A DNA stretch of 24,000 bases from Thermoplasmatota archaeon (GTDB taxonomy: Archaea; Thermoplasmatota; SW-10-69-26; JACQPN01; JAIVGT01), in assembly GCA_036003985.1 (NCBI GenBank), contig DASYRW010000313.1, positions 8,727-32,726 of the forward strand. The letters are read 5' to 3'. The stretch's first letter is position 1. Each line of letters opens with the position of its first letter. The position numbers and the translations under genes are program-made. Positions 10,452 to 24,000 of the stretch are shown one piece after another. The notes beneath the pieces are model-generated. The model made no database searches. It had not been told where the DNA came from and was given only the letters and a program-made list of their open reading frames with translations.

Positions 10452-10649
10452 GGCCGCTCCCCCTGTCCGTCCACTGGAGCGGTCGCTCCCGGGACTTAGG
10501 CCTTCGCCGCAAACGCCGGCGCGCGCCGCGGGAACAGGGCCGCGCCGTGGACCCGGAGGGCCGGACGGGGCGCCCCGCGGGGGACCGTGCGGTGGCCAGG
10601 CAACATGCGCGGGCCACCCTCTTTAGGCGGGGAGCGCGCTCCGCCCCCG

Positions 10650-11000: not shown

Positions 11001-11078
11001 GTTCGGCGTGTTCGGTCCACCCTCCCCTCAAAGGCCTCGTAGGCGAACCTTCCGTCCCAAGGGTGGGCGGGCATCAAA

Positions 11079-11954
11079 CTACGAAGCGCTTGGCCCGCCG
11101 ATGTCGAACCCGGGCTCCTGGCCCTCGGGCGCGCCGCGCGCAACCTGCAGCGCGGGGTCCGCCAGCGCGCCGTACGCTTCGGGCCGCCGCCGGGGCAGGC
11201 TGAGGCTCCGCCGGCGCTCCTCGCGCAGCTGGTCGAGGTCCAAGTCGGCGAGCACGACCTCTTCGCCCAGCTCGTCGCGCGCCTCGGCGAGCATGCCCCA
11301 CGGCGCCGCGACGAGCGAGCGCCCGACGAGCCGGCCAGGCCCAGGACCGCTGACGCTGCCCGCCTTGAGCACGAAGCAAGCATTGTCGTAGGCGCGCGCG
11401 ACGAACATCGCCTTGCGCGCGTCCTTGCCCCGATCGTTGGGCTTGAGCCAGCTCATGACCGGCACGAGCAGCACCTCCGCCCCGCGCAGCGCGAGGATGC
11501 GCACGCCCTCGGGGTGCAGCACGTCGGCGCACACCACGCCGCCGACGCGCGCGCCCTGCCACGCGAAGGGAACGAGGTCATGGGCGGGCAACACGCCCCA
11601 GCGTTCCTCGGTCGGCATCGGATGCAGCTTGTCCTGCTGCCCCACCAGCGCGCCGCGGTCGAACACGAACAGCGTATTGTGCAGGTGGCCCTCGTGCCGC
11701 GCGAGCGCGTTGCCCGCGATCGCGAGGCCGAGGTCGCGGCTGATGTCCTGCACCGCCTCGCGCGCGCCCGCGCTCAAGCCCTCGGGGTCGCGCGGGGGGC
11801 CGTCGCCCCGCGGCAGGAACCAATACTCGGGAAGCAGCGCCAGCTGCGCGCCTGCGGTCGCGGCGTGCGAGGCCATCGCGCCGGCGTGGGCCCACGCCTC
11901 CTTGGGGCTGGGCTTCAAGGCCATCTGCAGGCAGGCCGCGCGCACCGCCGTCAC
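11079..11954 (-). CDS. carbon-nitrogen hydrolase (nitrilase superfamily)
   Basis: Track ORF 11079..12038. It begins with the VRAACLQM pattern typical of the family and has the Glu-Lys-Cys triad context: LLPEYWF, QDKLHPM and GGVVCADVLHPE. I prefer the GTG at 11954 because the ATG at 12038 would overlap the divergent gene start and leave no promoter. Confidence 0.85.
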   Translation of the reverse strand: MTAVRAACLQMALKPSPKEAWAHAGAMASHAATAGAQLALLPEYWFLPRGDGPPRDPEGLSAGAREAVQDISRDLGLAIAGNALARHEGHLHNTLFVFDRGALVGQQDKLHPMPTEERWGVLPAHDLVPFAWQGARVGGVVCADVLHPEGVRILALRGAEVLLVPVMSWLKPNDRGKDARKAMFVARAYDNACFVLKAGSVSGPGPGRLVGRSLVAAPWGMLAEARDELGEEVVLADLDLDQLREERRRSLSLPRRRPEAYGALADPALQVARGAPEGQEPGFDIGGPSAS

Positions 11955-12036
11955 GCTGCCGGCGAGGGCCGGCGCGGGACAAGGAGCTTTCGCACCCGCC
12001 GGAAACCTTTCGTGCCCCGCTCGCGTTGGGGCGAGC

Positions 12037-12252
12037 ATGGACGCCGTGCCCCTCGCGGCCCTCGCGGGCGAGCGCGTGCTGGGCTGGCGCGTCCTCGACG
12101 GCGCGCTCTGGCTGCGGACGCCGCGCGGCGAGGTGCCCTGCGTGTGCGACTGCGGCCGCGTTCACCTGCTGCCGGACGAGGACGCAGACGCGCAGCAACT
12201 CCACCTGCGCTGCCACGGCTGCGGCCGCGTGGCGCGGCTCGCGATGGCCTAG
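12037..12252 (+). CDS. small zinc-ribbon-like protein (71 aa)
   Basis: 3' part of track ORF 11413..12252: MDAVPLAALAGERVLGWRVLDGALWLRTPRGEVPCVCDCGRVHLLPDEDADAQQLHLRCHGCGRVARLAMA. It carries CxC and CxxC pairs. An AAACCTTT box at 12003-12010 lies 26 nt upstream of the ATG. GC3 is high. Confidence 0.5.
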   Translation: MDAVPLAALAGERVLGWRVLDGALWLRTPRGEVPCVCDCGRVHLLPDEDADAQQLHLRCHGCGRVARLAMA

Positions 12253-12292
12253 GCCCGGCAAGCTTTTGCGCGCGGCGCGCGATGGCGCCCCG

Positions 12293-13189
12293 ATGATCCT
12301 CGGCTCGCACGTCAGCGTCGCGGGCGGCCCCGAGCACGCCTTCGGCCACGCCGCCGAGATCGGATGCGACGCGATCCAGGTCTTCGTCAAGCCCCCGCGC
12401 AAGCTCCGCGGCATCAAGGACTTCACCCCCGAGCAGATCCATGCTTGGGAAGCGGCGCGCGCGACGAGCAAGGTCCAGGCCATCGTGGTCCACGCGAACT
12501 ACCTCATCAACCTCGCCGGCCAGGGGCACACGGGCGAGTACAGCCGCGAGGCTTTGCTGGACGAGATGAAGCGCGCCCACGAGCTGCGCATCGGCACGGT
12601 CATCTTCCACCCCGGCCAGCACTTCGGCGGCGGCGAGGAGAAGGGCCTGAGGACCATCGCGAAGAACCTGCAGTGGTGCCTCAAGAAGGGCAAGGACTAC
12701 GGCGACGTCACCATCGCGCTGGAGAACATGGCGGGCCAGGGCACGATGCTGGGCTATGACTTGCAGCAGCTGCGCACGATCATCGACCTCACCGGCGAGC
12801 CGCGCCGCTTCGGCGTGTGCATCGACACGTGCCACACGCTCGCGGCCGGCTACGACCTGCAAACCCGGGAGGGATACGCGAAGACGATGGAGCTGGTCGA
12901 AGCGCTCTTCGACGACACCACCGCCGGCGTGCGCGCGTTCCACGTCAACGACTCCAAGACCCCGAGGGGCAGCCGCGTGGACCGCCACGCCGAGATCACC
13001 AAGGGCACGATGGGCGCCGCGGGGTTCAAGTTGCTGCTGCAGGACCCGCGCTGGCGCGATGCGCCCGGCGTGCTCGAGACGCCGCACGACGACAACAAGG
13101 GCTTCGCGAAGGACCTGAAGCGCCTGCGCAAGCTCGAGGCCGAGCCGCTGACCGACAAGGATCTCCCGAGGCAGCGTGTGCTCGGGTAG
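12293..13189 (+). CDS. nfo: deoxyribonuclease IV / endonuclease IV (AP endonuclease family 2)
   Basis: Internal ATG of track ORF 12026..13189: MILGSHVSVAGG...CDAIQVFVKPPR...IVVHANYLINLA...IFHPG...IALENMAGQG...GVCIDTCHTLAAGYD...AFHVNDSK...GSRVDRHAEI..G. These are the canonical Nfo metal-ligand motifs. A GCTTTTG box at 12262-12268 lies 24 nt upstream. Confidence 0.93.
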   Translation: MILGSHVSVAGGPEHAFGHAAEIGCDAIQVFVKPPRKLRGIKDFTPEQIHAWEAARATSKVQAIVVHANYLINLAGQGHTGEYSREALLDEMKRAHELRIGTVIFHPGQHFGGGEEKGLRTIAKNLQWCLKKGKDYGDVTIALENMAGQGTMLGYDLQQLRTIIDLTGEPRRFGVCIDTCHTLAAGYDLQTREGYAKTMELVEALFDDTTAGVRAFHVNDSKTPRGSRVDRHAEITKGTMGAAGFKLLLQDPRWRDAPGVLETPHDDNKGFAKDLKRLRKLEAEPLTDKDLPRQRVLG

Positions 13190-13252
13190 GCGCGGGCGGC
13201 GGCTGCATAGCCTTATGGGTCGCACAGCCCGTCGCAGACTGGGAGGTTTCCG

Positions 13253-13465
13253 ATGCGTGTCCTCATCCCCGTGCTGCTGCTGGCCGCTGCGCTTCCGGCG
13301 CTTTCGCCAAGCGCGTCGGCGTGCCATATCGTGCTGCCCCTCGATGTGGAATGGTCCGACGGCGGCAAGAGCTGGGTGCATGTGTACTACGACAGCTGCC
13401 TCCACATGCTCTGCGTCGACAGCGCCTTCGGGCTGCTGGCGATCCACGAGTGCGCGCCCGGCTAG
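13253..13465 (+). CDS. small secreted Cys-containing protein (70 aa)
   Basis: MRVLIPVLLLAAALPALSPSASA is a signal-peptide-like N-terminus. The mature part has 4 Cys. A GGAGG lies 6 nt upstream of the ATG (13242-13246). No family recognised. Confidence 0.5.
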   Translation: MRVLIPVLLLAAALPALSPSASACHIVLPLDVEWSDGGKSWVHVYYDSCLHMLCVDSAFGLLAIHECAPG

Positions 13466-14455
13466 CTAGCGGATCCCGAACAGCGCCTGGCCCAGCAGCA
13501 GCACCGCGAGCAACCGCAGCGCGAAGCCGGCGAAGACGGCCAGCAGGAACGGCCTCAGCCGCAGCCCCATGCCGCTGAACAGGTAGACGGGGACGATGTC
13601 GAAGGGGCTGAACGGCACGGCCAGCATGAGGCCCAGCGCCGCGTACCCAAACCGGCGCGCGAACCGCTCCGCCCGGGCCATGAATGCGCGCGTGAGCCGG
13701 CTCCGCGCCTCGAGTTTCGCGACGCCCGCGCGCAGCGCGGGGCCGAGCGCGTAGATGATCCAGGCTCCTGCCGCCTTGCCCGCCGCGCTCGACAGCACCA
13801 CCAGCCAGATGCCCAAGGTGCCCACCGACGCGAGCGCGATCGGCTCGACGGGGATCGGCAGGAAGAGGTTCGTGCCCATCGAGGCGAAGTAGAGCGTGAA
13901 CAGCACGTTCCACGCGACGCTCAGCCGCGGCGAGGCAAGCGCAAGCCCGAGCAGGCCCACGAGCCACACCCAGACCGTGCTGAGCAGCACCAGGAACAGC
14001 AGCGTGCGCTGCATGCGCGGCGTGAGGAGCTGCGGGTGCCGGACTGCGCGCGCGAAGTCGCGGCGCGTCGCGGGGTCGCTGAAGATGTCCACGACCTCGT
14101 GGTACTGCTTCCACACGACGTCGGCGAAGCGGTTCGCGGCGCGGCCCGGGTGGCCCAGGCGGTGCAACCGTTCGCCCGTGGCGCCGAGGGGGTGGCCCTC
14201 GAGGCGGGTCGTGCTCGTGACCACCACCTGGCCGCCCTCGACGCGCACGAGGTCCTGGAGCAGCAGGTGCTCGCGGTCGGCGAGGATGTGGCCGTGCTCG
14301 ATCCGGAACTCGCCCGGGGCTGGCAGCGGCGTGGCCACCCACGACGTGGGGACGGACTCGCCGCCCTCCAGCAAGCCGGTCTCCCAGTCCTCGCGCTCGC
14401 CGCGGGGGCCGCGCTCCAGCCGGAGCCGCACGCGGACGCGCAGCGGAGGGGCCAT
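13466..14455 (-). CDS. membrane protein: about 150-aa N-terminal soluble domain of unknown family plus C-terminal VTT/DedA (SNARE-associated) domain
   Basis: 329 aa. The C-terminal half has several TM helices with the DedA/VTT-like re-entrant signatures NLFLPIPVEPIALASVG and AVPFSPFDIVPVYLFSGMG. The N-terminal domain is unrecognised. High GC3. Confidence 0.75.
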   Translation of the reverse strand: MAPPLRVRVRLRLERGPRGEREDWETGLLEGGESVPTSWVATPLPAPGEFRIEHGHILADREHLLLQDLVRVEGGQVVVTSTTRLEGHPLGATGERLHRLGHPGRAANRFADVVWKQYHEVVDIFSDPATRRDFARAVRHPQLLTPRMQRTLLFLVLLSTVWVWLVGLLGLALASPRLSVAWNVLFTLYFASMGTNLFLPIPVEPIALASVGTLGIWLVVLSSAAGKAAGAWIIYALGPALRAGVAKLEARSRLTRAFMARAERFARRFGYAALGLMLAVPFSPFDIVPVYLFSGMGLRLRPFLLAVFAGFALRLLAVLLLGQALFGIR

Positions 14456-14456
14456 G

Positions 14457-14594
14457 TCACCGCCTGCGCCGCCGCAGCGTGCCCAGCCGAAACAGGGCGC
14501 CCAGGACCATGGCGCCCAGCCGGCGGCGCGCGAGCTTGCCCTCGCGGAAGCTCTCGCTCTGGATCTGCGTGAGCTTCTCGTCGAACTGGGTCAT
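14457..14594 (-). CDS. possible 45-aa ORF (below the track cutoff), amphipathic N-terminus plus a short hydrophobic, Arg-rich C-terminus
   Basis: Read by hand: MTQFDEKLTQIQSESFREGKLARRRLGAMVLGALFRLGTLRRRRR. Almost every codon ends in G/C. The stop TGA (14459-14457) is 1 nt before the ATG of the VTT gene. A GGCTTTAGCC box (14618-14627) lies 23 nt upstream, the spacing seen at the other promoters here. Confidence 0.4.
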   Translation of the reverse strand: MTQFDEKLTQIQSESFREGKLARRRLGAMVLGALFRLGTLRRRRR

Positions 14595-14640
14595 CGGCTG
14601 GCGCAAGCTCAGCCAAGGCTAAAGCCTTGCGCGCGCGGCC

Positions 14641-16602
14641 TCAGCAGGCGCACTTGTGTCCCGCGCCGTGGCTGTCCCCGCACCCGCAGCCACCAGCTGG
14701 GCTGCCGACTTTGAGCGACACGACCGCGCCGCCCGCGTTCTGCGCCGCGAAGGGGCTCACCGTCGGGAGCGCCGTCGAGGCCTTCAGCGGGTGCTCGATG
14801 GGGCGCCCGATGGCCTTCTCGTAGTGGTCGATGATGCGCCGCTTGTCCTCGAGGGCCAGCTCGCGCTTGTACTTCGTCTCGTAGTCGCGGATCTTGCCTT
14901 CCGCGGTGACGTACTGCGGGTTCTGCTTGGCCCACTCCTTGGGGTCCATGCTGTACTTGCGCTGCACGCGGTCGCGATACAGCTCGGGGATAACGTTGAA
15001 CGAGCAGAACGGCACGACGCGGCCATCGGGCATGGCGTAGTGGATGTCGCACCGCTCGACGCGGTCCACGTCGTAGTTGTACGGGTCCATGAAGTGCATC
15101 ATGCCGATGAACAGGCTGTTGTAGTGGAACGCGCGCAGGCCGTCGTAGTCGCCCTTGACGAAGGCGTCGAAGAGCATCTTGCCCATGTCGAGGCCTTCCG
15201 GCATCTTGGCCTTGTCCACGAAGGTGTCGAGCTTCCACACCAGCTTGCCCAGCGCGGCAGCGCGCGCGAGGTTGCGGTGCTTCGCGGCGGTGATCTCGTC
15301 GGCGCTCTCCTCGAGGAACTCGAGCATGCCCTCGATGTCCACGAAGCGCGAGATGGGCACGAGCTTCCCACTCGGGGTCTTGAACACGTACGTGCCGACG
15401 CCGCAGCTGAAGTGGATCGAGAGGTTGTAGGTCTGCTTGCCCTTCATCGCCTCGACGAACTTGCTCACCTTCACGCTGATCGGGACGGTGAAGAAGTCGC
15501 GCTTGGCGATCTCCCCGTTGGTCTGCTCCTCGATCTTCTGGCACGCGCCGGGGATCGTGATGCGCTGGCGCTCGCGGAGCTTGTCGGGCATGCGGCCCAC
15601 CAGGCTCACGGGCTGGAAGTTCACGGCCCTGACGATGTCGAGGTTCGCGGCGCCGAACCTGATGATGTCGCCCAGCTCGTGGTCGTTCACGCCGCCGATG
15701 ACGGTCGGCACCAGCACGACCCCGATGGGCGCGCGCCGCGCCGCGTCCAGCGCGGCGGGCATCTCCCAGAAGTTCTTGGGGTTCGTCTTGGGCGTGACGC
15801 CGTCGAAGCTGAGGTAGAACACGTTGGCGCCGGCCTCGCGCGACTTGCGGGCGATGTCGGGATCTTTGGAGATGTTCACGCCGTTGGTGTTCAGCTGGAC
15901 GTGGTCGTAGCCCTCCTCGCGGGCGATCTTGATGATGTCCACGAGGTCGAGCCTGCCTGTGGGCTCGCCGCCCGTGATTTGCACGCAGTTGGCGCCCGTG
16001 GGCTTCTCGTTCTTCATGGCGCGCAGCATCATGCGGATCTGGTCCTGGGACGGCTCGTAGAGAGGCTCGCCCTCCTTCGCGTAGAAGAAGCAGTACCAAC
16101 AGGAGAGGTCGCAGCGGTTGGTGATGACGATGTTGCCGAGGCCGGTGTGGGACTTGTGCTTGGGGCACAGGCCGCACATCTTGGGGCAGTCGATGTCCTG
16201 CTCCTTGACGTTGCCGAACACGTGGGCCGTCTCGAGGTGGTTCGCGAAGTCCGCCGCGACGCGGGCTTCCTTGAACATGTTGTAGTCTTCCCAATACTTG
16301 TCCCACACGAAGCCGTGCTCCTCGCACCGCTTCACGAGCTTGACCTGGTTGCCTTCCTCGAAGATCACGGCAGTGACCTTCATCTTCGCGAACTTCTCCT
16401 CGTCCACGCAGTAGGGGCAGAGGGACTTGGTGACGCGGATGACGGTGACGTTCTCCTTGCCGGCAAGGAGCTCGCCGATGAGCTGCTTCACCTGCTCGGG
16501 GCTTTCTTTGACGTTGTGCGAGATCTCGAAGGGGATCTCGGCCTTCGAGCCGGGGCTCCGGAAGGTCGCGTTGGGCGCAAGCTGCTCGACGCGGGCTGCC
16601 AT
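14641..16602 (-). CDS. tes: radical SAM enzyme, tetraether lipid synthase (Tes / GDGT-MAS, COG1964-type) family candidate
   Basis: 653 aa from the ATG at 16602, with GGAGG 8 nt upstream; the track start at 16617 is a TTG. N-terminal Cys pairs CPYC...RCEEH, an auxiliary motif CPKMCGLCPKH, the radical SAM motif NRCDLSCWYCFF (Cx3Cx2C), then GGEPT, LNTNG, FYLSFDG and the C-terminal CDIHYAMPDGRVVPFCSFN. This architecture fits my recollection of the Tes/GDGT-MAS family. Confidence in the radical SAM call is about 0.95; the Tes call needs a homology search. Confidence 0.75.
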   Translation of the reverse strand: MAARVEQLAPNATFRSPGSKAEIPFEISHNVKESPEQVKQLIGELLAGKENVTVIRVTKSLCPYCVDEEKFAKMKVTAVIFEEGNQVKLVKRCEEHGFVWDKYWEDYNMFKEARVAADFANHLETAHVFGNVKEQDIDCPKMCGLCPKHKSHTGLGNIVITNRCDLSCWYCFFYAKEGEPLYEPSQDQIRMMLRAMKNEKPTGANCVQITGGEPTGRLDLVDIIKIAREEGYDHVQLNTNGVNISKDPDIARKSREAGANVFYLSFDGVTPKTNPKNFWEMPAALDAARRAPIGVVLVPTVIGGVNDHELGDIIRFGAANLDIVRAVNFQPVSLVGRMPDKLRERQRITIPGACQKIEEQTNGEIAKRDFFTVPISVKVSKFVEAMKGKQTYNLSIHFSCGVGTYVFKTPSGKLVPISRFVDIEGMLEFLEESADEITAAKHRNLARAAALGKLVWKLDTFVDKAKMPEGLDMGKMLFDAFVKGDYDGLRAFHYNSLFIGMMHFMDPYNYDVDRVERCDIHYAMPDGRVVPFCSFNVIPELYRDRVQRKYSMDPKEWAKQNPQYVTAEGKIRDYETKYKRELALEDKRRIIDHYEKAIGRPIEHPLKASTALPTVSPFAAQNAGGAVVSLKVGSPAGGCGCGDSHGAGHKCAC

Positions 16603-16619
16603 ACGAGGAACCTCCAAGC

Positions 16620-16643
16620 AACTTTCAGCAAGTTCTGAAAGTT
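16620..16643. promoter_or_regulatory. perfect 9-bp inverted repeat AACTTTCAG-N6-CTGAAAGTT, candidate operator
   Basis: Lies in the 90-nt divergent intergenic region between the tes-like gene (ATG 16602) and the GbsR/MarR-like gene. It sits 18 nt upstream of the tes ATG, downstream of the TATA-like boxes at 16650-16673, so it would cover the expected tes transcription start. Confidence 0.45.
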
Positions 16644-16649
16644 TGGAAC

Positions 16650-16673
16650 GCTTATCAAGGATGACGCATATAG
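16650..16673. promoter_or_regulatory. AT-rich TATA-like boxes (GCTTATCAAGG, CATATAG) of the divergent tes / GbsR-like promoters
   Basis: These are the only AT-rich elements between the two start codons. Their spacing to TTG 16684 and ATG 16693 (plus) and to the IR/SD/ATG 16602 (minus) is compatible with archaeal TATA-to-start distances. Confidence 0.4.
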
Positions 16674-16692
16674 CCCTTTCGAGTTGCGGGCG

Positions 16693-17247
16693 ATGACGGG
16701 TTCAACTCAAGCCGAGCGGAAAGCCAAAGCAACTAGCACGGCCAGCAAGGCCGCGCCCGCGGAAATCAAGGACAAACTGTACAGCAGCTTCGCCAACGTC
16801 GCGGCGCTCATGGGCTACAGCGAGGTCCACGGCCGCATCATCGCCGCGTTGACCGCGGACGGCGGCCCCGTGTCGCTCGGCGACCTCGCCAAAGAGACCG
16901 GCTACAGCCTCAGCAGCATCTCCACCAGCCTCGACTTGCTGGAGGTGCTCGGCATGGTCCGCAAGGTCAAGGTCGCGGGCGACCGGCGCGTCTTCGTCCA
17001 GCTCGACGGCGACTTGCTCGAGGGCATGAAGCGCGCCATCGTGATGAAGGGCCAGAAGGGCGTCGAGAACGCGTTCAAGGAGTTCACCAAGTACGAGGCC
17101 GCGCTGGCCACCATGCCCGAGAGCGACGACCGAGCGAAGATCGCCAACGTCCTCGCGACGCTGCGCAGCGAGCTGGAGCGGCTGCAGGCGTACCTCGAGC
17201 TGCTGGGCGCGATCCAGCTGCCGAGGGAGCCGCCGGTGCGGCGGTAG
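16693..17247 (+). CDS. GbsR/MarR-like winged-helix transcriptional regulator
   Basis: 187-aa track ORF. The core YSSFANVAALMGYSEVHGRIIAALTADGGPVSLGDLAKETGYSLSSISTSLDLLEVLGMVRKV matches the GbsR (COG1510) style wHTH. ATG at 16693; the alternative TTG at 16684 lies 26 nt from the CTTATCAA box. Divergent from the tes-like gene. Confidence 0.8.
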   Translation: MTGSTQAERKAKATSTASKAAPAEIKDKLYSSFANVAALMGYSEVHGRIIAALTADGGPVSLGDLAKETGYSLSSISTSLDLLEVLGMVRKVKVAGDRRVFVQLDGDLLEGMKRAIVMKGQKGVENAFKEFTKYEAALATMPESDDRAKIANVLATLRSELERLQAYLELLGAIQLPREPPVRR

Positions 17248-17304
17248 CGGCCTCGATGTACGGTCAAGGAATCGCGCCACGCACGGTCTGCCTTGGCCAG
17301 GTCG

Positions 17305-18142
17305 CGCACGGGAAAGGTCGGCCCGCCCCCGGGAGGCGATGTGGGCGGCGGGCCGCGGCAAGAGCAGCAGAAAGGTGAAAGGCACCGCGCCGGTCAGGAC
17401 GCCGGGCGAACCCTTGCGGGTTCCTTCGGCGCTCCGCCGGTCCTCCGTCAGGTCGAGGCTTGCGCCTCGTCCAGACCCGGGCCCTCTCGAGCCCGGCACG
17501 CTCCCCCTTGCGAGGGTGCGGGCCGCTTGCGCGGCGGACCGGGTGTCCGACCGTTTTGGCGCTGGGTCGCGCCCCGCCTCGCGGCGGTGGCGACATCCGT
17601 GCGCGGCGGCGTGCGCTTGCGCGCGCGTCGCCGGTCGTGCGTGCACGGGCTTGCGCCCGTGGCGAGGGCGTTCGACCTCGCGAGCCCTTGCGGGCCCGCG
17701 GGCGTTCCCGGCGCAGGGACCTTGCGCCTCGGATCCTCGCGAGGATCCTGGGATCTGCACGAGAGCTTGCGCTCCCGGTCTGTCTGCCGAGGTCCCGGCA
17801 CTCCGCGATGGGATGCGTCGTGCCGCTGGTTGCCCCCACCGAAATCCAGGTAATGAGCCTGGTCCCGGCGGTTGGCTGGCATTCCCTGCTTCGGCCCCGC
17901 GAGGGGCCTACCGCGTTTCGCGTTGCCTGCGGTCGCCGCGGGGATCAGCCGCGACTTGCGGTGCTTGCGCACCGCCAGGGTCGTCCTCGCGCCGCACGTG
18001 TCCCAGGGGCGCCGCCCGTCGGCGGGGCCTTCCTCCTCGCGGAGGTCCCGCGGCTCCCTCGCGGGAGTCGCGTCCCGGGCGCGCGGTTCGGGCGCACCTT
18101 GCGCCCCTTCCGGCGCGGTGTTTGTTACAATCCGGTGCGGGG
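17305..18142 (-). ncRNA. candidate large structured RNA (unknown family); alternatively an array of palindromic repeat elements
   Basis: No credible CDS. At least 17 short GC hairpins. 12 copies of CTTGCG and several C-TCGC-G loops read as GCAA/GCGA GNRA tetraloops on the minus strand. An AT-rich TTATTTTA element lies at 18167-18175 (minus sense) about 25 nt upstream of the proposed 5' end. A pyrimidine-rich tract (minus sense, 17358-17382) followed by an 8-bp GC hairpin (17320-17354) lies near the proposed 3' end. Ends and strand are inferred, not demonstrated. Confidence 0.35.
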
Positions 18143-18258
18143 GCTTGAGGCTGCCGGCGGCAACGCTAAAATAATGGGAAACGAAGCGCCGCGCACTTTA
18201 TGGCAGCGCGCTTCCGCTGGAACGCGAAGCTTCATGGCAGGTGCGGTTCGTCTGAACC

Positions 18259-18648
18259 TCAGAGCGGGTTCGGCGCGGTCGGCGCGCCCGCGACGAGGCG
18301 CGCGTTGGCCTCGAGGCGCTCGGCCTCGGTACACACCTGCCACTTCTCGCCCCACGCCTTCATCACGTGGAACACCTGCTCGAGCTCCTCGCCCTTGGGG
18401 GTCAGCGAGTACTCGACGCGGATGGGGCTCTCGCTGTGCACGCGGCGCGCGACGAGCTGGCGCTGCTCCAGGTGCTGCAGGCTCTCGCTCAGCACCTTGG
18501 CGCTGATGCCGCGCACGCTGCGGCGGAGCTCGTTGAAGCCGCGCGGGCCCTTGGTGAGCTCGTGGAGGATGATCAGGTACCACTTCTTGCCGATGATCTT
18601 GATCGTCTCGGTCACCGGGCAGAGGTCGGCGCGGCCGCCGTGCGCCAT
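18259..18648 (-). CDS. HxlR-family winged-helix transcriptional regulator
   Basis: 3' part of track ORF 18259..18840: MAHGGRADLCPVTETIKIIGKKWYLIILHELTKGPRGFNELRRSVRGISAKVLSESLQHLEQRQLVARRV...RVEYSLTPKGEEL, the canonical HxlR pattern. I prefer the ATG at 18648. Codons between 18705 and 18649 (TTG GAT GGT AAC TTA GTC CCT) are unlike the GC3-rich genes here. Confidence 0.85.
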   Translation of the reverse strand: MAHGGRADLCPVTETIKIIGKKWYLIILHELTKGPRGFNELRRSVRGISAKVLSESLQHLEQRQLVARRVHSESPIRVEYSLTPKGEELEQVFHVMKAWGEKWQVCTEAERLEANARLVAGAPTAPNPL

Positions 18649-18722
18649 CGCGGCGCCGACCGCAGTGAGGTCGTTCACGCCAGGGACTAAGTTACCATCC
18701 AACATAAAGTTTCGTTCCGTAA

Positions 18723-18739
18723 CTTCAGGTTGTCTGAAG
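18723..18739. promoter_or_regulatory. inverted repeat CTTCAG-N5-CTGAAG upstream of the HxlR gene, related to the tes operator candidate
   Basis: AACTTCAGgttgtCTGAAGG shares the AACTT(T)CAG ... CTGAA(A)G half-sites with 16620-16643. Confidence 0.3.
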
Positions 18740-18808
18740 GCTGCCCTTCCCCGGCCACGGTGCTTCCCGCCTGGCCTCTCCCCAGGGGCGCGTGGCTCGG
18801 TCGAGGCA

Positions 18809-18835
18809 AACTTATTATATTTCATTAGTTTATGT
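18809..18835. promoter_or_regulatory. AT-rich block (AAACTTATTATATTTCATTAGTTTATG) carrying promoter box(es) for the basic-tail protein gene and possibly the divergent HxlR gene
   Basis: The longest AT-rich run in the window. TAGTTTATG ends about 20 nt upstream of the ATG at 18854. Confidence 0.45.
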
Positions 18836-18853
18836 CCCAAACCAGGGTCCCGG

Positions 18854-19294
18854 ATGGCTACGGATTTCGTTGAATCGAAGCCCCTTCATAAGGTGCCCTT
18901 CAAATCGGGGAAGGACATCCTGGAAACCCAATATAAGAGCGGCCGCTCCGTCCTCGAGCGCTCCGACTGGGCCCGCGCGTCCTTCGACAGCCTCCGGCGC
19001 CGCTTCGTCCATGTGCCCGAGGAGCAGCTCGTGCGGCTCTTCCACAACAAGACCCAGTCGCAGTTGGAGATGATCCAGGGCGACGCGGTCTTCCTCGAGT
19101 ACAACGCCACGCACCCCATCGGCCGGCGCCGCGTCAAGGTCCGGCGGAAGCTCGCGCCCCTCGCCGCGCCGAAGGTGGCCGCACCGGCGAAGCGCGCGGC
19201 CCCGCCGAAGCCCGCCAAGGCGAAGGCGAAGCCCAAGGCGCGGCCCGCCCCGAAGCCCCGCAAGGCCTCGGCGGCGAAGCGCCGGAAGCGCTGA
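18854..19294 (+). CDS. hypothetical protein with a Lys/Ala/Pro-rich, histone-H1/AlgP-like basic C-terminal tail
   Basis: Internal ATG of track ORF 18200..19294: MATDFVESKPLHKVPFKSGKDILETQYKSGRSVLERSDWARASFDSLRRRFVHVPEEQLVRLFHNKTQSQLEMIQGDAVFLEYNATHPIGRRRVKVRRKLAPLAAPKVAAPAKRAAPPKPAKAKAKPKARPAPKPRKASAAKRRKR. An AT-rich block at 18809-18835 lies about 20-40 nt upstream. Confidence 0.7.
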   Translation: MATDFVESKPLHKVPFKSGKDILETQYKSGRSVLERSDWARASFDSLRRRFVHVPEEQLVRLFHNKTQSQLEMIQGDAVFLEYNATHPIGRRRVKVRRKLAPLAAPKVAAPAKRAAPPKPAKAKAKPKARPAPKPRKASAAKRRKR

Positions 19295-19336
19295 TGGCGC
19301 GGCCTTTATCCTGCTGGGCTCCCTCCTGAGATCGAG

Positions 19337-20188
19337 ATGGAGAAGGCGCGGGCTCTCGTCGAGGCATTCGAGGCGCTCCGCGACCGCCTCAAGATCAACC
19401 TGCTCTTGGTCGTGACCGACCAGTCCGAGCTGGTCGATCTGTGCCTCCAGCGCAGCCCGGTGCCCGTGATCCTCGCCACGAGCGACGAGGGGCTCCGGCG
19501 CCGCTACGCGGGCAAGGTCAAGGCGTCGCTCCCGTTCCCCGGGGGCGTCCGCAGCACCGTCAGCGCGTTGAACCAGCTCAACGACCTGCTGCTCCAGACC
19601 TACCTCGAGGGCGCGCTGCAGCTGAGCGACAACGTGCTCGTGCTGGCGAGCCACGGCGAGGCCATCGACGCCATCGTGGTCTTCGACGTGGACAAGGACC
19701 TGGAGCTCGCGCGGCTGCGCTCGCAGTTGGAGGACTCGGCGAACCTCAAGGTGGTGGAGCGCGTGATCGCGCTCGCGAGCGAGCTGGCGCGCGAGGGCCG
19801 GGAAGGCCACCGCGTGGGGGCGATCTTCGTGGTGGGCGACAGCGGCAAGGTGCTCGAGCACTCGCGGCCCCTCGTCATCAACCCCTTCGCGGGCCACCCG
19901 GAGAAGGAGCGCAACATCCTCCAGGACAAGAACTGGGAGACCGCGAAGGAGTTCAGCCGCCTCGACGGCGCGTTCGTCGTGCGCAGCGACGGCGTGATCG
20001 AGGCCGCCGGGCGCTACTTGGAGACCGACAAGGGCATCGAGCTGCCCTCGGGCCTCGGGGGCCGCCACCTCGCGGCGGCGAGCATCACCAAGAAGACCAA
20101 CAGCGTCGCGGTCACGGTGAGCACGAGCGGCGTGATCCGCGTCTTCCGCGATGGTCGCATCGTGGTGGTCCTGGGCCGCCACGCATGA
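19337..20188 (+). CDS. dacZ: diadenylate cyclase, archaeal DacZ type (N-terminal PK_C-like domain plus DAC domain)
   Basis: 283 aa. The C-terminal DAC-domain motifs are GAIFVVGD, LDGAFVV (DGA motif), GLGGRHLAAASIT (RHxAA motif) and VAVTVSTSGVIRVF. The roughly 130-aa N-terminal regulatory-like domain is as in DacZ. A CTTTATCC box at 19304-19311 lies about 25 nt upstream of the ATG. Confidence 0.88.
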   Translation: MEKARALVEAFEALRDRLKINLLLVVTDQSELVDLCLQRSPVPVILATSDEGLRRRYAGKVKASLPFPGGVRSTVSALNQLNDLLLQTYLEGALQLSDNVLVLASHGEAIDAIVVFDVDKDLELARLRSQLEDSANLKVVERVIALASELAREGREGHRVGAIFVVGDSGKVLEHSRPLVINPFAGHPEKERNILQDKNWETAKEFSRLDGAFVVRSDGVIEAAGRYLETDKGIELPSGLGGRHLAAASITKKTNSVAVTVSTSGVIRVFRDGRIVVVLGRHA

Positions 20189-20249
20189 ACGCGTTCGATC
20201 GCGGCCCCAGCACCGATTTATAGGCCCGAGAGGTTAAAATGCCGGGCCC

Positions 20250-21842
20250 ATGGCGCGCATCGTCCTCGCCACCGACTACACGCTCATGAGCAACTACTGG
20301 GAGCTGCCCCTGAGCACGTTCTTCAGCTGCATCCCGGCGGACGTGTGGGCGAGCCGGCTCGCGTTCCGGATCCTCGCGCCCGACCCCCCGCACGACCGCG
20401 GCGTCGCGCGCGTTGCGCCCTACGGGCTGCGCAAGCTCGAGGCCGCGCTGCTGAACGGGCCGGCGGCGTACCGGCGCGACGAGGTCGTCGTCGCGCACCC
20501 CCGCTACCTGCACAAGTTCATCGGGCCCGAGACCGAGGTCGTCGCGCTCAGCGCCATGGATCCGCTCGGGCTCGGGCCCGTCAGCATGACCTTCACCAAC
20601 GGCGGCGAGTTCGAGGCGTACACGAAGCACGAGTTCGCCAAGCTCGCGCTCGCGGCCAATGGTTTGGCGGCGAACGGCCGCAACGGCCACGGCGTCAACG
20701 GCCACGCGGCGAAGCGCTCCTACAAGGTCGTGGTGGGCGGCCCCGGCGTGTGGCAGTTCGAGCACCGCCCCGCCGTGCTCGACCAGCTCGGCATCGACCA
20801 TGTGGTCCACGGCGAGTGCGATGTCGCCGCGCCGCACCTGCTGCGCGACCTCGCGGCCAAGGGCGGCGACCGCTTCATCAAGGTCAAGGACTTCCCGCGC
20901 GTCGAGGAGATGCCCGACATCGTCGGCCCAGCCATGCACGGCATGGTCGAGACGATGCGGGGCTGCGGGCGCAACTGCGAGTTCTGCGACGTCAACCTGC
21001 GCCGCGCGCGGGACTATCCGATCGACAAGGTGCTGCGCGACGTGCGCGTGAACGTCGAGCAGGGCGGCTTCCGCAAGGCGTGGCTGCACAGCGACGACAT
21101 CTTCCTGTACCGCTGCGAGAACCGCGCGACCTTGGAGCCGAACGTGGACGCGGTCGTGGAGCTGTTCCAGGCCGTGCGCGAGTTCCCCGGCATCGCGCAC
21201 TGCAACCCCACCCACGGCACGCTCAGCCCTGCCGTGAGCCACCCGCGCATGGCCGAGCGCATCTCCGAGGTCGTGGGGGCTGGACCGCAGAAGTGGATCG
21301 GCATCCAGAGCGGGGTCGAGACCGGCTCGCCCGAGCTGATGAAGAAGTTCATGCCGCGCAAGGCGTTGCCCCTCAGCGTCGCGGACTGGCAGCACATCAT
21401 CGTGGACGCGGTGCGCCACCTCAACGCCAACTACTGGTACCCGGCCATGACGGTCATCGTGGGCCTGCCGGGCGAGACCGAGGAGGACGCGTGGGAGACC
21501 GTGCGGCTCATCTTCAGGCTCGAGCACGAGATCGAGCAGCCGCACTTCATCATCGCGCCGCTGTGCTTCGTGCCCGTGGGCGTGCTGCGCGACGAGGGCT
21601 TCTACCGCATCGGCGAGAAGCTCGACGAGGCGCGGTACAACGTCATCTACCACTGCTGGCGCCACACCGTGCTCGAGATGGACCAGAGCCTCTGGCTCGT
21701 GAGCCGCATGCCCTCGCCGGTGAAGGCCCTCGTCAACGTGCTGGGCCGCGCCGGCGGGCGGTGGATCCTGCGCGGGCTCGAGAGCTACGCGCGCGACCGG
21801 AACTTCAGGCTCAAGCAGCCGCGCGACTTCGGGTTCACCTAG
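20250..21842 (+). CDS. radical SAM protein with N-terminal B12-binding-like (Rossmann-like) domain, archaeal family of unknown function
   Basis: 530 aa. The radical SAM motif is MRGCGRNCEFCDV (Cx3Cx2C). Upstream is a domain reading IVLATDYTLMS...APYGLRKLEAALL...EVVALSAMDPLGLGPVS...KVVVGGPG, typical of class-B-like enzymes, interrupted by a low-complexity insert ANGLAANGRNGHGVNGH. Downstream are IQSGVETGSPELM and VIVGLPGETEED. A GATTTATAGG box lies at 20215-20224, about 25 nt upstream. Confidence 0.85.
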   Translation: MARIVLATDYTLMSNYWELPLSTFFSCIPADVWASRLAFRILAPDPPHDRGVARVAPYGLRKLEAALLNGPAAYRRDEVVVAHPRYLHKFIGPETEVVALSAMDPLGLGPVSMTFTNGGEFEAYTKHEFAKLALAANGLAANGRNGHGVNGHAAKRSYKVVVGGPGVWQFEHRPAVLDQLGIDHVVHGECDVAAPHLLRDLAAKGGDRFIKVKDFPRVEEMPDIVGPAMHGMVETMRGCGRNCEFCDVNLRRARDYPIDKVLRDVRVNVEQGGFRKAWLHSDDIFLYRCENRATLEPNVDAVVELFQAVREFPGIAHCNPTHGTLSPAVSHPRMAERISEVVGAGPQKWIGIQSGVETGSPELMKKFMPRKALPLSVADWQHIIVDAVRHLNANYWYPAMTVIVGLPGETEEDAWETVRLIFRLEHEIEQPHFIIAPLCFVPVGVLRDEGFYRIGEKLDEARYNVIYHCWRHTVLEMDQSLWLVSRMPSPVKALVNVLGRAGGRWILRGLESYARDRNFRLKQPRDFGFT

Positions 21843-22132
21843 CGCCGCGGGACGTCCTCCCACGTCCGCGTCACGTCCGCCAGGGGCCGTTCGAGGAACT
21901 TCGCGCGCACCTGCTGCTCCGCGTCCTGGCCGAGCACGTTGCAGATGCTCAGTGCCATGAACAGCACGTCGCACGCCTCGTCGCCCGCTCGCTGGGCCTC
22001 GCCTTTGCGCACGGCGCGGGCCAGCTCGCCCACCTCCTCTTGCAGGACGCTCACGAGGAACGGCAATCCCGCTTGGCGGTCCATCGCGGCGAACCGCTCC
22101 GCCAGCGCGTCCTGCAGCGCGCGCAGCTCCAT
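21839..22132 (-). CDS. MazG-like nucleotide pyrophosphohydrolase domain protein (97 aa)
   Basis: 3' end of track ORF 21839..22960: MELRALQDALAERFAAMDRQAGLPFLVSVLQEEVGELARAVRKGEAQRAGDEACDVLFMALSICNVLGQDAEQQVRAKFLERP..., with the EEVGEL and DEACDVL acidic pairs of MazG-like folds. Its stop overlaps the stop of the convergent radical SAM gene by 4 nt. Confidence 0.7.
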   Translation of the reverse strand: MELRALQDALAERFAAMDRQAGLPFLVSVLQEEVGELARAVRKGEAQRAGDEACDVLFMALSICNVLGQDAEQQVRAKFLERPLADVTRTWEDVPRR

Positions 22133-22286
22133 GCCTCGGCAAGGATGGTCGCGCCCATGAACCCGCGGGTTTCGGAGCGCTCGGAACCGCGCGCACCCGC
22201 AGCGGCCGGGCCGACCGTCGCCGTTATCCGCCGGCGAGTCGGTGCCCGGCCGGGCGGCGAGGCGCGTGGGGCAGCAGGTCGCGGAC

Positions 22287-23231
22287 ATGGGGGCCGGCGC
22301 GGCGGCCGCGCCCACCGCCGACGCGGGCATCGCCGAGCTGGTCCGCGCGTACGAGGGGGCGCTGCGGTTCACGGACACGCTGCCGGCCTTGGGCCGCGTC
22401 CGCCTCGAGCCCGAGGCTCCACCCGAGGAGGCCACGCGCTGGGCCGCGCTCGCGCGCCGCCTGCGCACGCGGCGCCCGTGGGTGGCCCGCCCGCTCGTGC
22501 GCTGGTTCGTCGAGTCCCACGCGCGCCGCCAGTTCGAGGCGATCGCGCGCCACGTCCGCTTCGAGGCGGCGGGCGCGACCGGCGACCCCGGCGCGCCGCC
22601 CATGGCGCGCAGCCGCATGCTCGACGAGCTGGCGCGCGAGATGTTCTCGTGGCGCAGGGGCGCGGCGGGCTTGGCGGGGCTGGTCGCGCTCTCGCCCCTC
22701 GCCGTCGCGCAGTACGTGCTGCAGTGGGTGGAGCCGTTGCTCGCCGCGGTCGGCATGCCCCTCGGGTTGCTGATCATGTTCCTCGCGGTGGCCAGCGTCG
22801 CGTACGTCGCGTACTGGGCGCTCGTGGTTCCGCTGCTGTTCCTCGGGTTCCGCCCCAAGCGTGCGATCTTCTGCGGCGGCCACACGGGTCCCGCGCTGTG
22901 GTCGGTGTCCGATGCGGCCTGCCACTGGCGGCGCAAGGACGGCGCGTTCCCCACCACCAACGTGTACGCGCTTGAGGATCGCGTGTTCCGCCAGCTCGGC
23001 GCCGCGAAGGGTCGGGAAGTGCCCCTCGATCTCTACGCGCACCCCACCGCGCTCTTCGGCGTGCCGGGGGCGCTCGTGTGGACCTTCATCGGGCTGCTCA
23101 TCGCGCGCGACGCGGCGGGCGACCTCGGCACGATCGCGGGCGCCGCCGCGCTCTTCGTGGTGCTGCCGTGGGTGGGCGTGGTGCTCCTCTACCGCGACGC
23201 GGTCGCGCGGTTCCGTCGCCGGCCGTCGTAG
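22287..23231 (+). CDS. hypothetical membrane protein (N-terminal soluble region plus about 4 TM helices)
   Basis: Track ORF 22242..23231, where the first codon is GTG. Hydrophobic stretches: [73 protein letters not shown] and [18 protein letters not shown]. No family recognised. The start is uncertain (ATG 22287 or GTG 22242). Confidence 0.55.
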
Positions 23232-23304
23232 CGCGCGCCGCGCATCGCCGCCGCCTGCCCGCCAAAGCCTCTTATACCCCGGGGGGGATGGGCCGCCGAA
23301 GGCC

Positions 23305-24000
23305 ATGCCGGTCAACGTGGACCTGTCGAAGCTCCGCCACGGCACGGAGCTGCTGAAGCGCGGCTTCGCGTCGATGCAGAAGGGAGGCGTCATCATGGAC
23401 GTGACCACCCCCGCGCAGGCCGCCATCGCCGAGGAGGCGGGCGCCGTCGCGGTCATGGCCCTGGAGCGCGTGCCCGCCGACATCCGCGCGGAAGGCGGGG
23501 TGGCGCGCATGGCCGACCCGCGCGTCGTGGCGGAGATCGTCGACGCGGTCACGATCCCGGTGATGGCCAAGGCGCGCATCGGCCACTTCGCCGAGGCTCA
23601 GATCTTGGAGACCCTCGGCGTGGACATGATCGACGAGTCCGAGGTGCTGACGCCCGCGGACCCCTACTTCCACATCGACAAGCGCGGCTTCACCGTGCCC
23701 TTCGTGTGCGGCGCGCGCACCCTGGGCGAAGCAACGCGGCGCATCTTCGAGGGCGCGGCCATGATCCGCACCAAGGGCGAGGCCGGGACGGGCAACGTCG
23801 TCGAGGCCGTGCGCCACCGCCGCCAGATCGCGCGCGCCATCCGCGAGGTCCAGGCCCTCGACAAGGACGCTCTGCGGGCCCTCGCGGGCCACCACGCGCA
23901 GCGGTACGGCGCGCTGCTGGCCGAGGTTCGCGCGGACGCGGGCACGCCCCAGGCCGCGCAGCCCAAGGACCGGCTCTTCGCCGACGCGACCCTCGAGATC
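23305..24000 (+). CDS. pdxS: pyridoxal 5'-phosphate synthase, lyase subunit PdxS (runs off the right edge)
   Basis: Absent from the track because it has no stop in the window. Hand translation from the ATG at 23305: [72 protein letters not shown]...[36 protein letters not shown]...[39 protein letters not shown], the near-invariant PdxS core. A CTTATACC box at 23271-23278 lies 26 nt upstream. Confidence 0.93.

Follow-up and report, generated by a model that had tools for sequence, protein, structure and literature searches.

A candidate large structured RNA gene between GbsR/MarR- and HxlR-family regulator genes in uncultured Thermoplasmatota

Results

Genes and features at the locus

The window, by which we mean the whole stretch of 24,000 nucleotides analysed here, carries two convergent regulator genes whose stops, at 17247 on the plus strand and at 18259 on the minus strand, delimit a gap of 1,011 nt, as had been given in a preliminary description of this DNA. 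The same description had set this gap apart from the other intergenic gaps, said to be shorter than about 200 nt, in agreement with the JGI gene calls for positions 6693-24000 of the window. The locus is laid out as follows:

16693-17247, plus strand: GbsR/MarR-family regulator gene (Pfam MarR_2, E = 4e-10), convergent with the predicted RNA
17310-18143, minus strand: predicted RNA gene of about 830 nt, both ends being predictions
18167-18174, minus strand: TATA-like box TTATTTTA in the conserved block CGTTTCCC-TTATTTTA-GCGTTGCCGCCGGCA, its orientation taken from the strand of the RNA
18212-18222, no strand assigned: palindrome TTCC-N3-GGAA (TTCCGCTGGAA), a candidate transcription-factor site
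18259-18648, minus strand: HxlR-family regulator gene (Pfam HxlR, E = 5e-29)

The extent of the predicted RNA follows the cross-species conservation in alignments A1 and A2, and nhmmer matches cover the same region; the 5' end was put about 21-25 nt downstream of the TATA-like box and the 3' end after a terminal hairpin and UUU tract. A basic-tailed protein of 146 aa is encoded among the neighboring genes as well.

Non-coding character of the gap

The segment is non-coding, as had been proposed from the lack of a credible coding sequence. Its open reading frames (ORFs) have a flat GC content at the three codon positions (GC1, GC2 and GC3 of 0.65-0.82), and the confident genes of the window have GC3 of 0.91-0.98 and GC2 of 0.4-0.6. 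No codon phase stands out in the substitutions with respect to three other species (66/66/62, 54/51/57, and 66/70/67), and 62 of 71 indels are not multiples of three. Neither a conserved reading frame nor a protein homologue was found: the 269-aa ORF of the plus strand, listed by JGI as hypothetical, matched nothing outside its own cluster in searches of 5.8 billion and 1.84 billion proteins, and translations of the spurious ORFs, used as a proxy for a nucleotide homology search, yielded no new homologues. Gene callers chose different strands for the region in different species.

Hexamer and hairpin census

The hexamer CTTGCG, previously counted by eye, is present in exactly 12 copies at the positions then reported, all on the plus strand and between 17413 and 18103 (691 nt); the expectation of less than one copy held as well (about 0.35 per 700 nt per strand), and the remaining 23.3 kb of the window have 23 copies on both strands. 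All the hairpins described earlier are present, with CTTGCG capping perfect GC hairpins. Counting perfect tetraloop hairpins with at least four Watson-Crick pairs, there are 21 in the 861 nt of the element (about 24 per kb), compared with 197 in the other 22.9 kb of the window (about 8.6 per kb). The element's tetraloops belong to the GNRA class in 11 of 21 cases when read on the minus strand and in 1 of 21 on the plus strand; among the 197 background hairpins only 5 (plus) and 6 (minus) do so. With a GC content of about 73%, the element has approximately one GNRA loop per 70 nt. Within the gap no repeat family was found, and only the loop hexamer recurs.

Conservation and distribution

At least four further species-level lineages (L082, L087, L217, and L213) have a homologous segment next to this GbsR/MarR gene, and in three of the four full-length homologues it lies between the GbsR/MarR and HxlR genes. 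Full-length elements of 947-1089 nt (L082/83/84, L087/88, L217, and L213-216) bring the full-length lineages to five, plus strain variants, and L085 and L089 have the element in part, as L080 may do (terminal hairpin only); nhmmer E-values of the homologues range from 1e-273 to 2e-06. The GbsR/MarR gene is the syntenic anchor in every homologous locus. An HxlR gene, reading in the direction of the RNA, directly precedes it in the window, L082, L087, and L213, not in L217. By sequence comparison, position and sequence blocks are thus conserved in at least five species-level lineages, and the element is found in a clade of uncultured Thermoplasmatota.

On a tree of the MarR proteins the RNA-bearing lineages span the whole tree, deepest branch included, a distribution that fits an ancestral element descending vertically, with loss. 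The locus has no element in L001, with 9 nt between the stops of MarR and HxlR, nor in L081, with a DUF4382 gene coming next after MarR; in these lineages the element must then be dispensable or have moved elsewhere.

Dispersed copies of the hairpin unit, which according to the preliminary description would have spoken for a repeat array, were found neither in the window nor in 1.2 Mb of related archaeal loci, in which both nhmmer and a model of the domain 2 hairpins (R1) returned one copy per locus; in the 1.2 Mb, R1 matched only its four training loci and did not detect L213. Searches by blastn against plasmids and phages gave no match, nor did a 26-nt conserved block against viral contigs. 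The pattern GACCGNCGGAGCGCCNAAGG hit at least 120 loci in metagenomes, all chance matches in unrelated contigs as judged by nhmmer, and its two matches in viral contigs were likewise due to chance.

Strand of the predicted RNA

The minus strand had been favored on a majority of loops, and the asymmetry of the GNRA loops in all five species backs that choice, with 49 tetraloops on the minus strand against 3 on the plus strand when pooled (11/1, 12/1, 12/0, 8/0, and 6/1 per species). At homologous hairpins the loops swap among GCAA, GCGA, GAAA, and GAGA, on different stems, and it is only when read on the minus strand that they stay within the GNRA class. The one hairpin flagged as an exception, at 17893-17908, does have a GCGA loop on the plus strand; its homologues carry minus-strand GCAA in L082, L087, and L217 and GAAA in L213.

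Folding against dinucleotide-shuffled controls pointed the same way, with z-scores of -7.6 (minus) and -3.6 (plus) for the window and of -4.5 and -3.2, respectively, for L087. The RNAalifold energies of the two strands under ribosum scoring, -558.6 vs. -547.7, were of no help in the choice. The conserved G-U pairs of the hairpin at 17832-17876 would be A-C mismatches on the plus strand. At the Watson-Crick pairs of the window, G-U and A-C combinations numbered 54 and 39, only weakly towards the minus strand (p = 0.15), hence the strand call rests mainly on the loops.

Signals upstream

The palindrome TTCCGCTGGAA lies about 70 nt upstream of the predicted RNA start; its arms are invariant in all five species and its middle 3 nt vary. 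It occurs once upstream of the RNA at each element locus, L087 having a second, unrelated match. Since no second TTCC-N3-GGAA was found upstream of HxlR or MarR, a regulatory link to the neighbors could not be shown. The window, L082, and L217 share one and the same TATA-like block, which L087 and L213 have in a weaker form. Both this block and the palindrome are kept in L217, whose element is preceded not by HxlR but by a divergent gene for a secreted protein. From these signals we infer that the RNA is probably an independent transcription unit with a candidate promoter of its own.

Predicted fold and its covariation

The sequences were aligned with MAFFT, and the minimum free energy (MFE) structure of the window alone was projected onto alignment A2. 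The predicted structure comprises five domains that would be closed by an invariant 11-bp long-range helix (P1); from 5' to 3' along the RNA it reads:

18110-18120, minus strand: 5' strand of P1, CACCGCGCCGG, 11 bp with 17383-17393
17992-18106, minus strand: domain 1, a hairpin at 18090-18106 followed by a junction helix around three hairpins
17662-17990, minus strand: domain 2, three subdomains bounded by a long-range helix (17982-17990 with 17662-17670)
17832-17876, minus strand: the most conserved long hairpin, GCCAGCCAACCGCCGGGAC...UUUCGGUGGGGGCAAC (helix 25)
17674-17794, minus strand: a peripheral, fast-evolving subdomain of GCAA-capped hairpins
17644-17661, minus strand: hairpin CACGGGC-GCAA-GCCCGUG, 7/7 pairs kept in L082, L087, and L217
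17545-17640, minus strand: domain 3, a pair of long hairpins with GCAA and GCGA loops (helices 36-39)
17437-17542, minus strand: domain 4, four hairpins bounded by a helix that pairs 17536-17542 with 17437-17443 (helices 40-44)
17395-17436, minus strand: domain 5, helix CGGAGCGCCG/CGGCGUCCUG and a GCAA hairpin (helices 45-47)
17383-17393, minus strand: 3' strand of P1, CCGGCGCGGUG, a block also present in the partial homologues L085 and L089
17310-17382, minus strand: 3' tail and candidate termination region, with a linker rich in pyrimidines (CCUUUCACCUUUCU), the terminal hairpin (17320-17354) and then GACCUUUCCC

Covariation, whose absence the preliminary description would have taken against a structured RNA, was well above that of slid and shuffled controls. 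The projected structure left 84.0% of the alignment cells paired, compared with 38-42% when partners were slid; 75 pairs were changed on both sides (15-31 in the slid controls), the covariation score was 0.204 (0.054-0.071 in the controls), and none of 500 shuffles reached any of the observed measures. Scored in the non-window species only, 82, 89, and 77% of the pairs were kept, against approximately 40%; most of L213 aligns poorly, with 52% of pairs kept. RNAalifold reported compensatory changes in 66 of 251 pairs. Compensatory substitutions preserve the helices to a degree that kinship and base composition do not explain, as is generally the mark of a conserved structured RNA. Individual helices of the model, above all long-range ones with little variation, are provisional.

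Within P1, pairs are kept in 10/10, 11/11, and 10/10 cases in L082, L087, and L217, respectively, and the helix, being invariant, shows no covariation. Domain 1 has 10 of 36 pairs changed on both sides; its junction hairpins carry the loops GCGA, GCGA, and an invariant GACG, and compensatory changes in the outer helix keep its pairing even in the distant L213. Double changes fall in helices 19, 20, 23, 24, 30, 32, and 34 of domain 2 and total 13 in domain 3. In the hairpin at 17832-17876, on which model R1 found one match per locus, three G-U pairs are kept in 5 of 6 sequences. The loop of the hairpin at 17644-17661 reads GCAA, GCAA (on a lengthened stem), GCGA, and GCAA across species, and the loops of domain 4 (GCAA, GCAA, GAGA, and GCAA) interchange among GCAA, GCGA, and GAGA. 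The sequence block of domain 5 is kept in seven lineages, partial ones included. Conservation is strongest not in the GNRA hairpins but in internal blocks, among them GCCAGCCAACCGCCGGGAC and the GACG hairpin, which is invariant. A hairpin with a short U tract recurs at the position of the tail in L082, L085, L087, L217, L080, and L089, with differing sequences, which suggests a terminator.

All of the 9-13 strain-level substitutions between the window and L078/L079 fall in 17674-17794, whose hairpins are retained, and the flanks are almost identical. This excess in one subdomain was counted against the structured-RNA reading. Mutagenesis of the diversity-generating retroelement (DGR) type was rejected for the patch because the substitutions are not adenine-specific.

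Searches for known families and motifs

The preliminary description knew of no archaeal family with this look, and Rfam 15 offered none on either strand, in the window or in the four homologous loci. The models searched took in GOLLD, ROOL, OLE, HEARO, raiA, group II intron domains, archaeal RNase P, and SRP RNA; there was no match in the 24-kb window at the gathering threshold and none in L082, L087, L217, and L213 at E ≤ 1. The sole match of the gap search at E ≤ 10, to sR53, lies inside the HxlR ORF and was ascribed to chance. Literature searches found no description of such an RNA. Among single motifs, box C/D-like sequences were looked for and not found, resemblances to K-turns and to the CR-I of RNase P seen by eye were dropped since they are not conserved, and neither half of the 11-nt tetraloop receptor (CCUAAG...UAUGG) is present in any of the five homologues, so that any receptor the RNA may have would lie in the minor groove of a helix.

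Discussion

We regard the segment from about 18143 to about 17310, on the minus strand, as an undescribed large and highly structured non-coding RNA of some 750-830 nt, a reading to which we give a probability of roughly 0.75. The checks proposed in the preliminary description, as far as they were run here, all favored a structured RNA. A promoter of its own would probably drive its transcription on the minus strand, and its C(GNRA)G hairpins (8-12 in the four closer lineages, 6 in L213) would act as architectural elements, docking in minor-groove receptors of GC-rich helices, either within the molecule or in other copies of it, and giving rise to a compact, very stable particle. Such a particle may serve as a protein scaffold or as a ribozyme, as do group I and II introns, RNase P, and the ROOL, GOLLD, and OLE assemblies, and the upstream palindrome may put its expression under control, possibly by one of the two flanking regulators. 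This mechanism, scaffold or ribozyme role and regulated expression included, is offered tentatively, at slightly short of even odds.

The known systems help to place the element. Like OLE, GOLLD, and ROOL it falls in the size class of approximately 600-850 nt, with multiple domains, many hairpins, blocks of invariant nucleotides and single chromosomal genes, and their biochemical function, too, was unknown at discovery. In contrast to them, it matches none of their Rfam models in sequence or structure, has an archaeal and not a bacterial host, and carries GNRA loops at a far higher density (about one per 70 nt, at ~73% GC); it lies outside the prophage or tRNA context of GOLLD and ROOL and is not accompanied by the oap genes of OLE. 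GOLLD, ROOL, and OLE form homo-oligomeric RNA-only complexes (PMC12286853), a plausible model, by analogy, for an RNA so rich in GNRA loops.

In group I and II introns and in RNase P RNA the tertiary fold is stitched together by GNRA tetraloops docking in helical receptors, and the element resembles these RNAs in being large, GNRA-rich and, in the predicted fold, built of domains that radiate from a closing helix. It differs from the introns in lacking exon context, splice-site motifs, domain V, and an intron-encoded protein, and from RNase P RNA in lacking the P4/CR-I to CR-V motifs; it is also about twice the size of archaeal RNase P RNA. Group II introns are marked by a domain V with an AGC triad, a GUGYG 5' end and usually an encoded reverse transcriptase, and the 34-nt hairpins inspected here by eye held no stem with the AGC triad.

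The C(GNRA)G hairpins could alternatively be repeated sites titrating a hairpin-binding protein, as in the CsrB/RsmZ sponge RNAs, in which one short loop motif is likewise repeated on different stems. Each RNA has 6-12 copies of a single loop class on varied stems, the peripheral hairpins evolve quickly and differ in length between strains and species, and a candidate regulated promoter lies upstream, all of which would suit a sponge. The hairpins occupy, however, homologous positions in conserved multi-helix junctions, together with an invariant 11-bp closing helix and long-range helices, and the strongest conservation falls on GCCAGCCAACCGCCGGGAC and the GACG hairpin rather than on the GNRA hairpins; the sponge RNAs known to us are much less constrained in global architecture. 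We consider a sponge unlikely.

Lower still we rate the possibility that the HxlR mRNA has a long structured 3' UTR which, as such or after processing, acts in cis on HxlR or on the convergent MarR gene. In the window, L082, L087, and L213 the element comes directly after HxlR and reads in its direction, the region from the HxlR stop to the core is partly conserved, and the T-rich block can also be read as an archaeal terminator. Yet the element of L217 keeps palindrome and TATA block with no HxlR upstream, and L001 has HxlR without the element; moreover, some 800 nt in five domains far exceed any archaeal UTR element known to us.

A mobile or selfish RNA, or its remnant (an ORF-less group II intron or a retroelement RNA) between convergent genes, would account for a large RNA rich in GNRA loops, for its presence or absence at one locus among relatives and for the clean 9-nt junction in L001. 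We consider it very improbable given that Rfam shows no intron or retroelement match, that an ORF for a reverse transcriptase or nuclease is lacking, that every locus has a single copy and searches of plasmids, phages, and viral contigs gave nothing similar, and that the element appears ancestral on the MarR tree and shows, by eye, no AGC hairpin like that of domain V.

A DNA-level array of the REP/BIME or MITE kind, suggested by dense GC palindromes between convergent genes, or an oddly composed protein-coding gene, suggested by long ORFs open in several frames, deserves hardly any weight, being already contradicted by an element with one copy per locus in the window and in 1.2 Mb of related archaeal loci, whose stems are all mutually unrelated, whose loops are strand-asymmetric (not required of a DNA palindrome) and whose long-range helices covary, and by the lack of periodicity, the frame-breaking indels and the absence of protein homologues.

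Returning to the structured RNA, large RNAs (>500 nt) with a conserved intricate structure are rare, and almost all the known ones are ribozymes or the cores of essential ribonucleoproteins: rRNA, RNase P, and group I and II introns. We know of no described archaeal counterpart of large structured RNAs of this kind. The element may even represent a first "ornate" large RNA class of Archaea: an RNA about 800 nt long, folded by its unusually dense C(GNRA)G hairpins into a compact and perhaps homo-oligomeric particle that acts in its own right as catalyst or scaffold, and expressed from a regulated promoter beside HxlR and GbsR/MarR; taken as a whole, this fuller proposal is doubtful, the odds being against it.

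Public annotation stands corrected for the region, which is now listed as a "hypothetical protein", on differing strands in differing assemblies. The RNA would be among the very few large structured archaeal RNAs of unknown function, and the element, its domains defined and a putative promoter at hand, offers a tangible candidate that can be aligned and made in vitro.

A conserved, GNRA-rich fold in a non-coding gap

The gap between the end of the ORF for the GbsR/MarR-family regulator (MarR; 17247, +) and that of the HxlR ORF (18259, -) measures 1,011 nt, as the preliminary description had it, and the element within it (a predicted non-coding RNA gene, about 17310-18143, -) is demonstrated here to be a conserved, covarying, strand-specific and GNRA-rich fold. 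The 12 copies of the hexamer CTTGCG noticed by eye were all recovered in place, on the plus strand between 17413 and 18103; the other 23.3 kb of the window, whose G+C content is about 72%, hold 23 copies on both strands together, or about 0.35 expected per 700 nt and strand. Perfect tetraloop hairpins with at least four Watson-Crick pairs number 21 in 861 nt of the element, and their loops are GNRA on the minus strand in 11 cases and on the plus strand in one, a bias that had been proposed; outside the element the same class counts 197 hairpins in 22.9 kb, GNRA in only 5 (+) and 6 (-). The resulting density is about one GNRA loop per 70 nt, a value that rRNA and introns are not known to reach. 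Against dinucleotide-shuffled controls the folding advantage was 7.6 sd for the minus strand and 3.6 sd for the plus strand. No repeat family was found within the gap, where only the loop and its closing pair recur; the stems differ, which contradicts a reading as DNA repeats.

The gap was also said to lack a credible CDS, and its ORFs have indeed flat GC1, GC2 and GC3 values (0.65-0.82), unlike the confident genes of the window (GC3 0.91-0.98). Compared with three other species, substitutions in the element show no preference for any codon phase, and 62 of 71 indels have lengths not divisible by three. Public annotation nonetheless has 'hypothetical proteins' of 268-415 aa across the RNA gene, on a strand that varies by assembly (L-numbers denote related metagenomic loci), with none in L087:

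Called ORFs over the RNA gene
Window 17339-18148 (+)
L082 10488-11423 (-)
L217 2212-3459 (+)
L216 2019-2825 (+)

The 269-aa plus-strand ORF (a JGI hypothetical protein) had no relative beyond its own cluster in a word-indexed search of 5.8 billion proteins, and scanning 1.84 billion representatives exhaustively with HMMER added none. Flat composition, even codon phases, frame-breaking indels and absent protein relatives contradict a coding reading, and the calls are spurious, since stop codons are few at 73% G+C.

Distribution among related lineages

Homologous loci were found with MarR homologues as anchors, the JGI counterpart of the window being contig Ga0376048_0001273 (L077). The counterpart sought in other lineages was recovered at full length in four, giving five full-length lineages with the window, all metagenomic.

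Loci related to the window (MarR identity; element; MarR-HxlR gap)
L082/L083/L084: 71%; full-length; 1,020 nt
L087/L088: about 66-67%; full-length; 947 nt
L217: 71%; full-length; 0.8-kb insert between MarR and element, upstream neighbour not HxlR
L213-L216 (NCBI GCA_035541015.1): about 61-63%; full-length; 1,089 nt
L085, L089: partial copies at contig ends
L080: contig ends after a single hairpin similar to the terminal one

Two loci lack the element: L001, with just 9 nt separating the stop codons of MarR and HxlR, and L081, where a DUF4382 gene comes after MarR. Because both are nested among the carriers in the MarR tree, where carriers include the deepest branch, the pattern fits an ancestral element later lost or relocated in the non-carriers. 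Element-like sequence was absent from PLSDB plasmids, INPHARED phages and IMG/VR contigs, and the tests run contradict a mobile element. In L080, L085, L088, L089 and L090 the contig ends within the RNA gene or right at its margin. Short-read assembly may fail across hairpins so rich in GC, in which case the RNA would be under-represented in MAGs.

Conserved pairing and strand

In a MAFFT alignment of the element minus strands (window and other species), long invariant blocks separate hairpins whose stems vary by species. The structure was folded from the window sequence alone and then projected onto this alignment, so the other species had no part in fitting it. The covariation sought in related genomes was found: standard pairs occupied 84.0% of cells, vs. 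38-42% in controls with the 3' partners slid by 1-3 columns, double changes occurred in 75 pairs (15-31 slid; shuffled mean 37), the covariation score was 0.204 (0.054-0.071 slid), and none of 500 shuffles reached any observed measure. Considering the non-window species only, L082, L087 and L217 kept 82, 89 and 77% of pairs (slid controls about 40%), with 24-31 double changes each vs. 4-17, and the distant L213 kept 52% vs. about 38%. RNAalifold reported compensatory changes in 66 of 251 pairs. When domain 1 was realigned over five species, G-C to A-U and C-G to U-A changes preserved its outer helix in L213, and even near-identical strains display a G-C to C-G flip in the GCAA hairpin 17760-17777. 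Individual helices are provisional.

The loops provide the strongest argument for the minus strand, GNRA counts (-/+) being 11/1 in the window, 12/1 in L082, 12/0 in L087, 8/0 in L217 and 6/1 in L213. In homologous hairpins the loop varies among GCAA, GCGA, GAAA and GAGA (mostly GAAA in L213) while the stem varies too, and selection therefore acts on the GNRA class rather than on a repeated sequence. The plus-strand GNRA hairpin flagged at 17893-17908 is present, as an exception specific to this lineage: the homologous hairpins have minus-strand GCAA or GAAA loops. Five of six sequences retain three G-U pairs in the most conserved hairpin (17832-17876); read on the other strand, these would be A-C mismatches. 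By folding z-score the minus strand is preferred for both the window and L087, and a strand-neutral count over the window's Watson-Crick pairs leans the same way without significance (G-U 54 vs. A-C 39, p = 0.15).

Predicted architecture

The anatomy was taken from the helix table of the predicted structure.

Features of the RNA (all minus strand)
18110-18120 with 17383-17393: invariant 11-bp closing helix around a core of about 740 nt
17992-18106: domain 1, a junction with three hairpins, one the invariant CGCC-GACG-GGCG
17662-17990: domain 2, the largest, containing the most conserved hairpin and, at 17674-17794, a peripheral subdomain that evolves fast
17644-17661: GCAA hairpin after domain 2
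17545-17640: domain 3
17437-17542: domain 4, four capped hairpins
17395-17436: domain 5, last of the core
Downstream of the closing helix: 3' region of pyrimidine-rich linker, hairpin 17320-17354 and short U tract

The main rival explanation, a CsrB-like protein sponge, is disfavoured by the conserved junctions and the long-range helices. Hairpin 17320-17354 and its U tract form a candidate termination region; other lineages have an analogous hairpin and U tract of different sequence at the 3' end. Two strain variants are almost identical to the window in their flanks: L078 has 6 SNPs over 8.3 kb, L079 no SNP over 3 kb. Their peripheral RNA subdomains (window 17675-17784; L078 2797-2906, L079 1650-1685) carry 13 and 9 clustered substitutions, respectively, with the hairpins retained. 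A local substitution hot spot, recombination of the patch or assembly from mixed strains would each explain this cluster; DGR-like mutagenesis was rejected, as the changes are not adenine-specific.

Upstream region and neighbouring genes

Upstream sites
18167-18174: TATA-like box TTATTTTA, within a 30-nt conserved block upstream of the RNA
18212-18222: palindrome TTCC-N3-GGAA, arms invariant, centre variable

Every element locus has the palindrome at the equivalent position. L217 keeps both sites, its upstream neighbour being a divergent secreted-protein gene instead of HxlR; most likely, then, the RNA is transcribed from a promoter of its own, possibly a regulated one, whose orientation we infer together with both transcript ends. 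Given L217 and L001, a role as 3' UTR of HxlR is unlikely. Two small minus-strand hairpins between the HxlR stop and the TATA-like box (GGUUC-AGAC-GAACC, 18254-18243; GCGCGCU-N7-AGUGCGC, 18191-18211), the second with some compensatory change in L087 and L217, may be part of either the RNA unit or the 3' end of HxlR.

L217 also holds a lower-G+C stretch (58%, 0.8 kb, 1611-2430) between MarR and the RNA, which may contain a small Cys-rich ORF; the product of the divergent gene in HxlR's place (3456-3833) has a signal-peptide-like N-terminus. A 146-aa ORF (18854-19294, +) without Pfam or NCBIfam match has a Lys/Ala/Pro-rich basic C-terminal tail (…AAPKVAAPAKRAAPPKPAKAKAKPKARPAPKPRKASAAKRRKR) and could bind nucleic acid; it lies beside HxlR and DacZ in L082, L087 and L213, and in L001 is inverted, in frame into HxlR. 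Three adjacent imperfect tandem arrays (5831-6039; 23-27-nt units, 82% G+C, TRF scores 58-79) are probably inside a coding region. The gene upstream of MarR encodes the tetraether lipid synthase Tes (14641-16617, -). The divergent tes/MarR (16693-17247, +) promoter region contains a perfect inverted repeat, AACTTTCAG-N6-CTGAAAGTT (16620-16643), conserved in L001 and probably the MarR operator, which hints that MarR controls the synthase.

Affinities and possible role

The comparison with Rfam 15 (4,227 families) that had been proposed returned no match at gathering thresholds over the whole window; the gap gave at E <= 10 only a chance sR53 match inside the HxlR ORF, and four homologous loci none at E <= 1. 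As modelled there, the RNA is not a member of GOLLD, ROOL, OLE, HEARO or raiA, nor of group II intron domains, RNase P or SRP RNA, and full-text literature searches on large structured RNAs in archaea or Thermoplasmatota retrieved nothing relevant. The nearest analogues of the RNA are, on the one hand, the bacterial 'ornate' RNAs, which assemble into homo-oligomers of RNA alone (PMC12286853), and, on the other, ribozymes stitched together by GNRA loops; it belongs to neither group. The canonical 11-nt tetraloop receptor is absent, which leaves helical minor grooves as the receptors, if there are any. Judging from the behaviour of GNRA loops in solved RNAs, the caps would make tertiary or quaternary contacts building a compact, very stable particle, which may act as a scaffold or a ribozyme.
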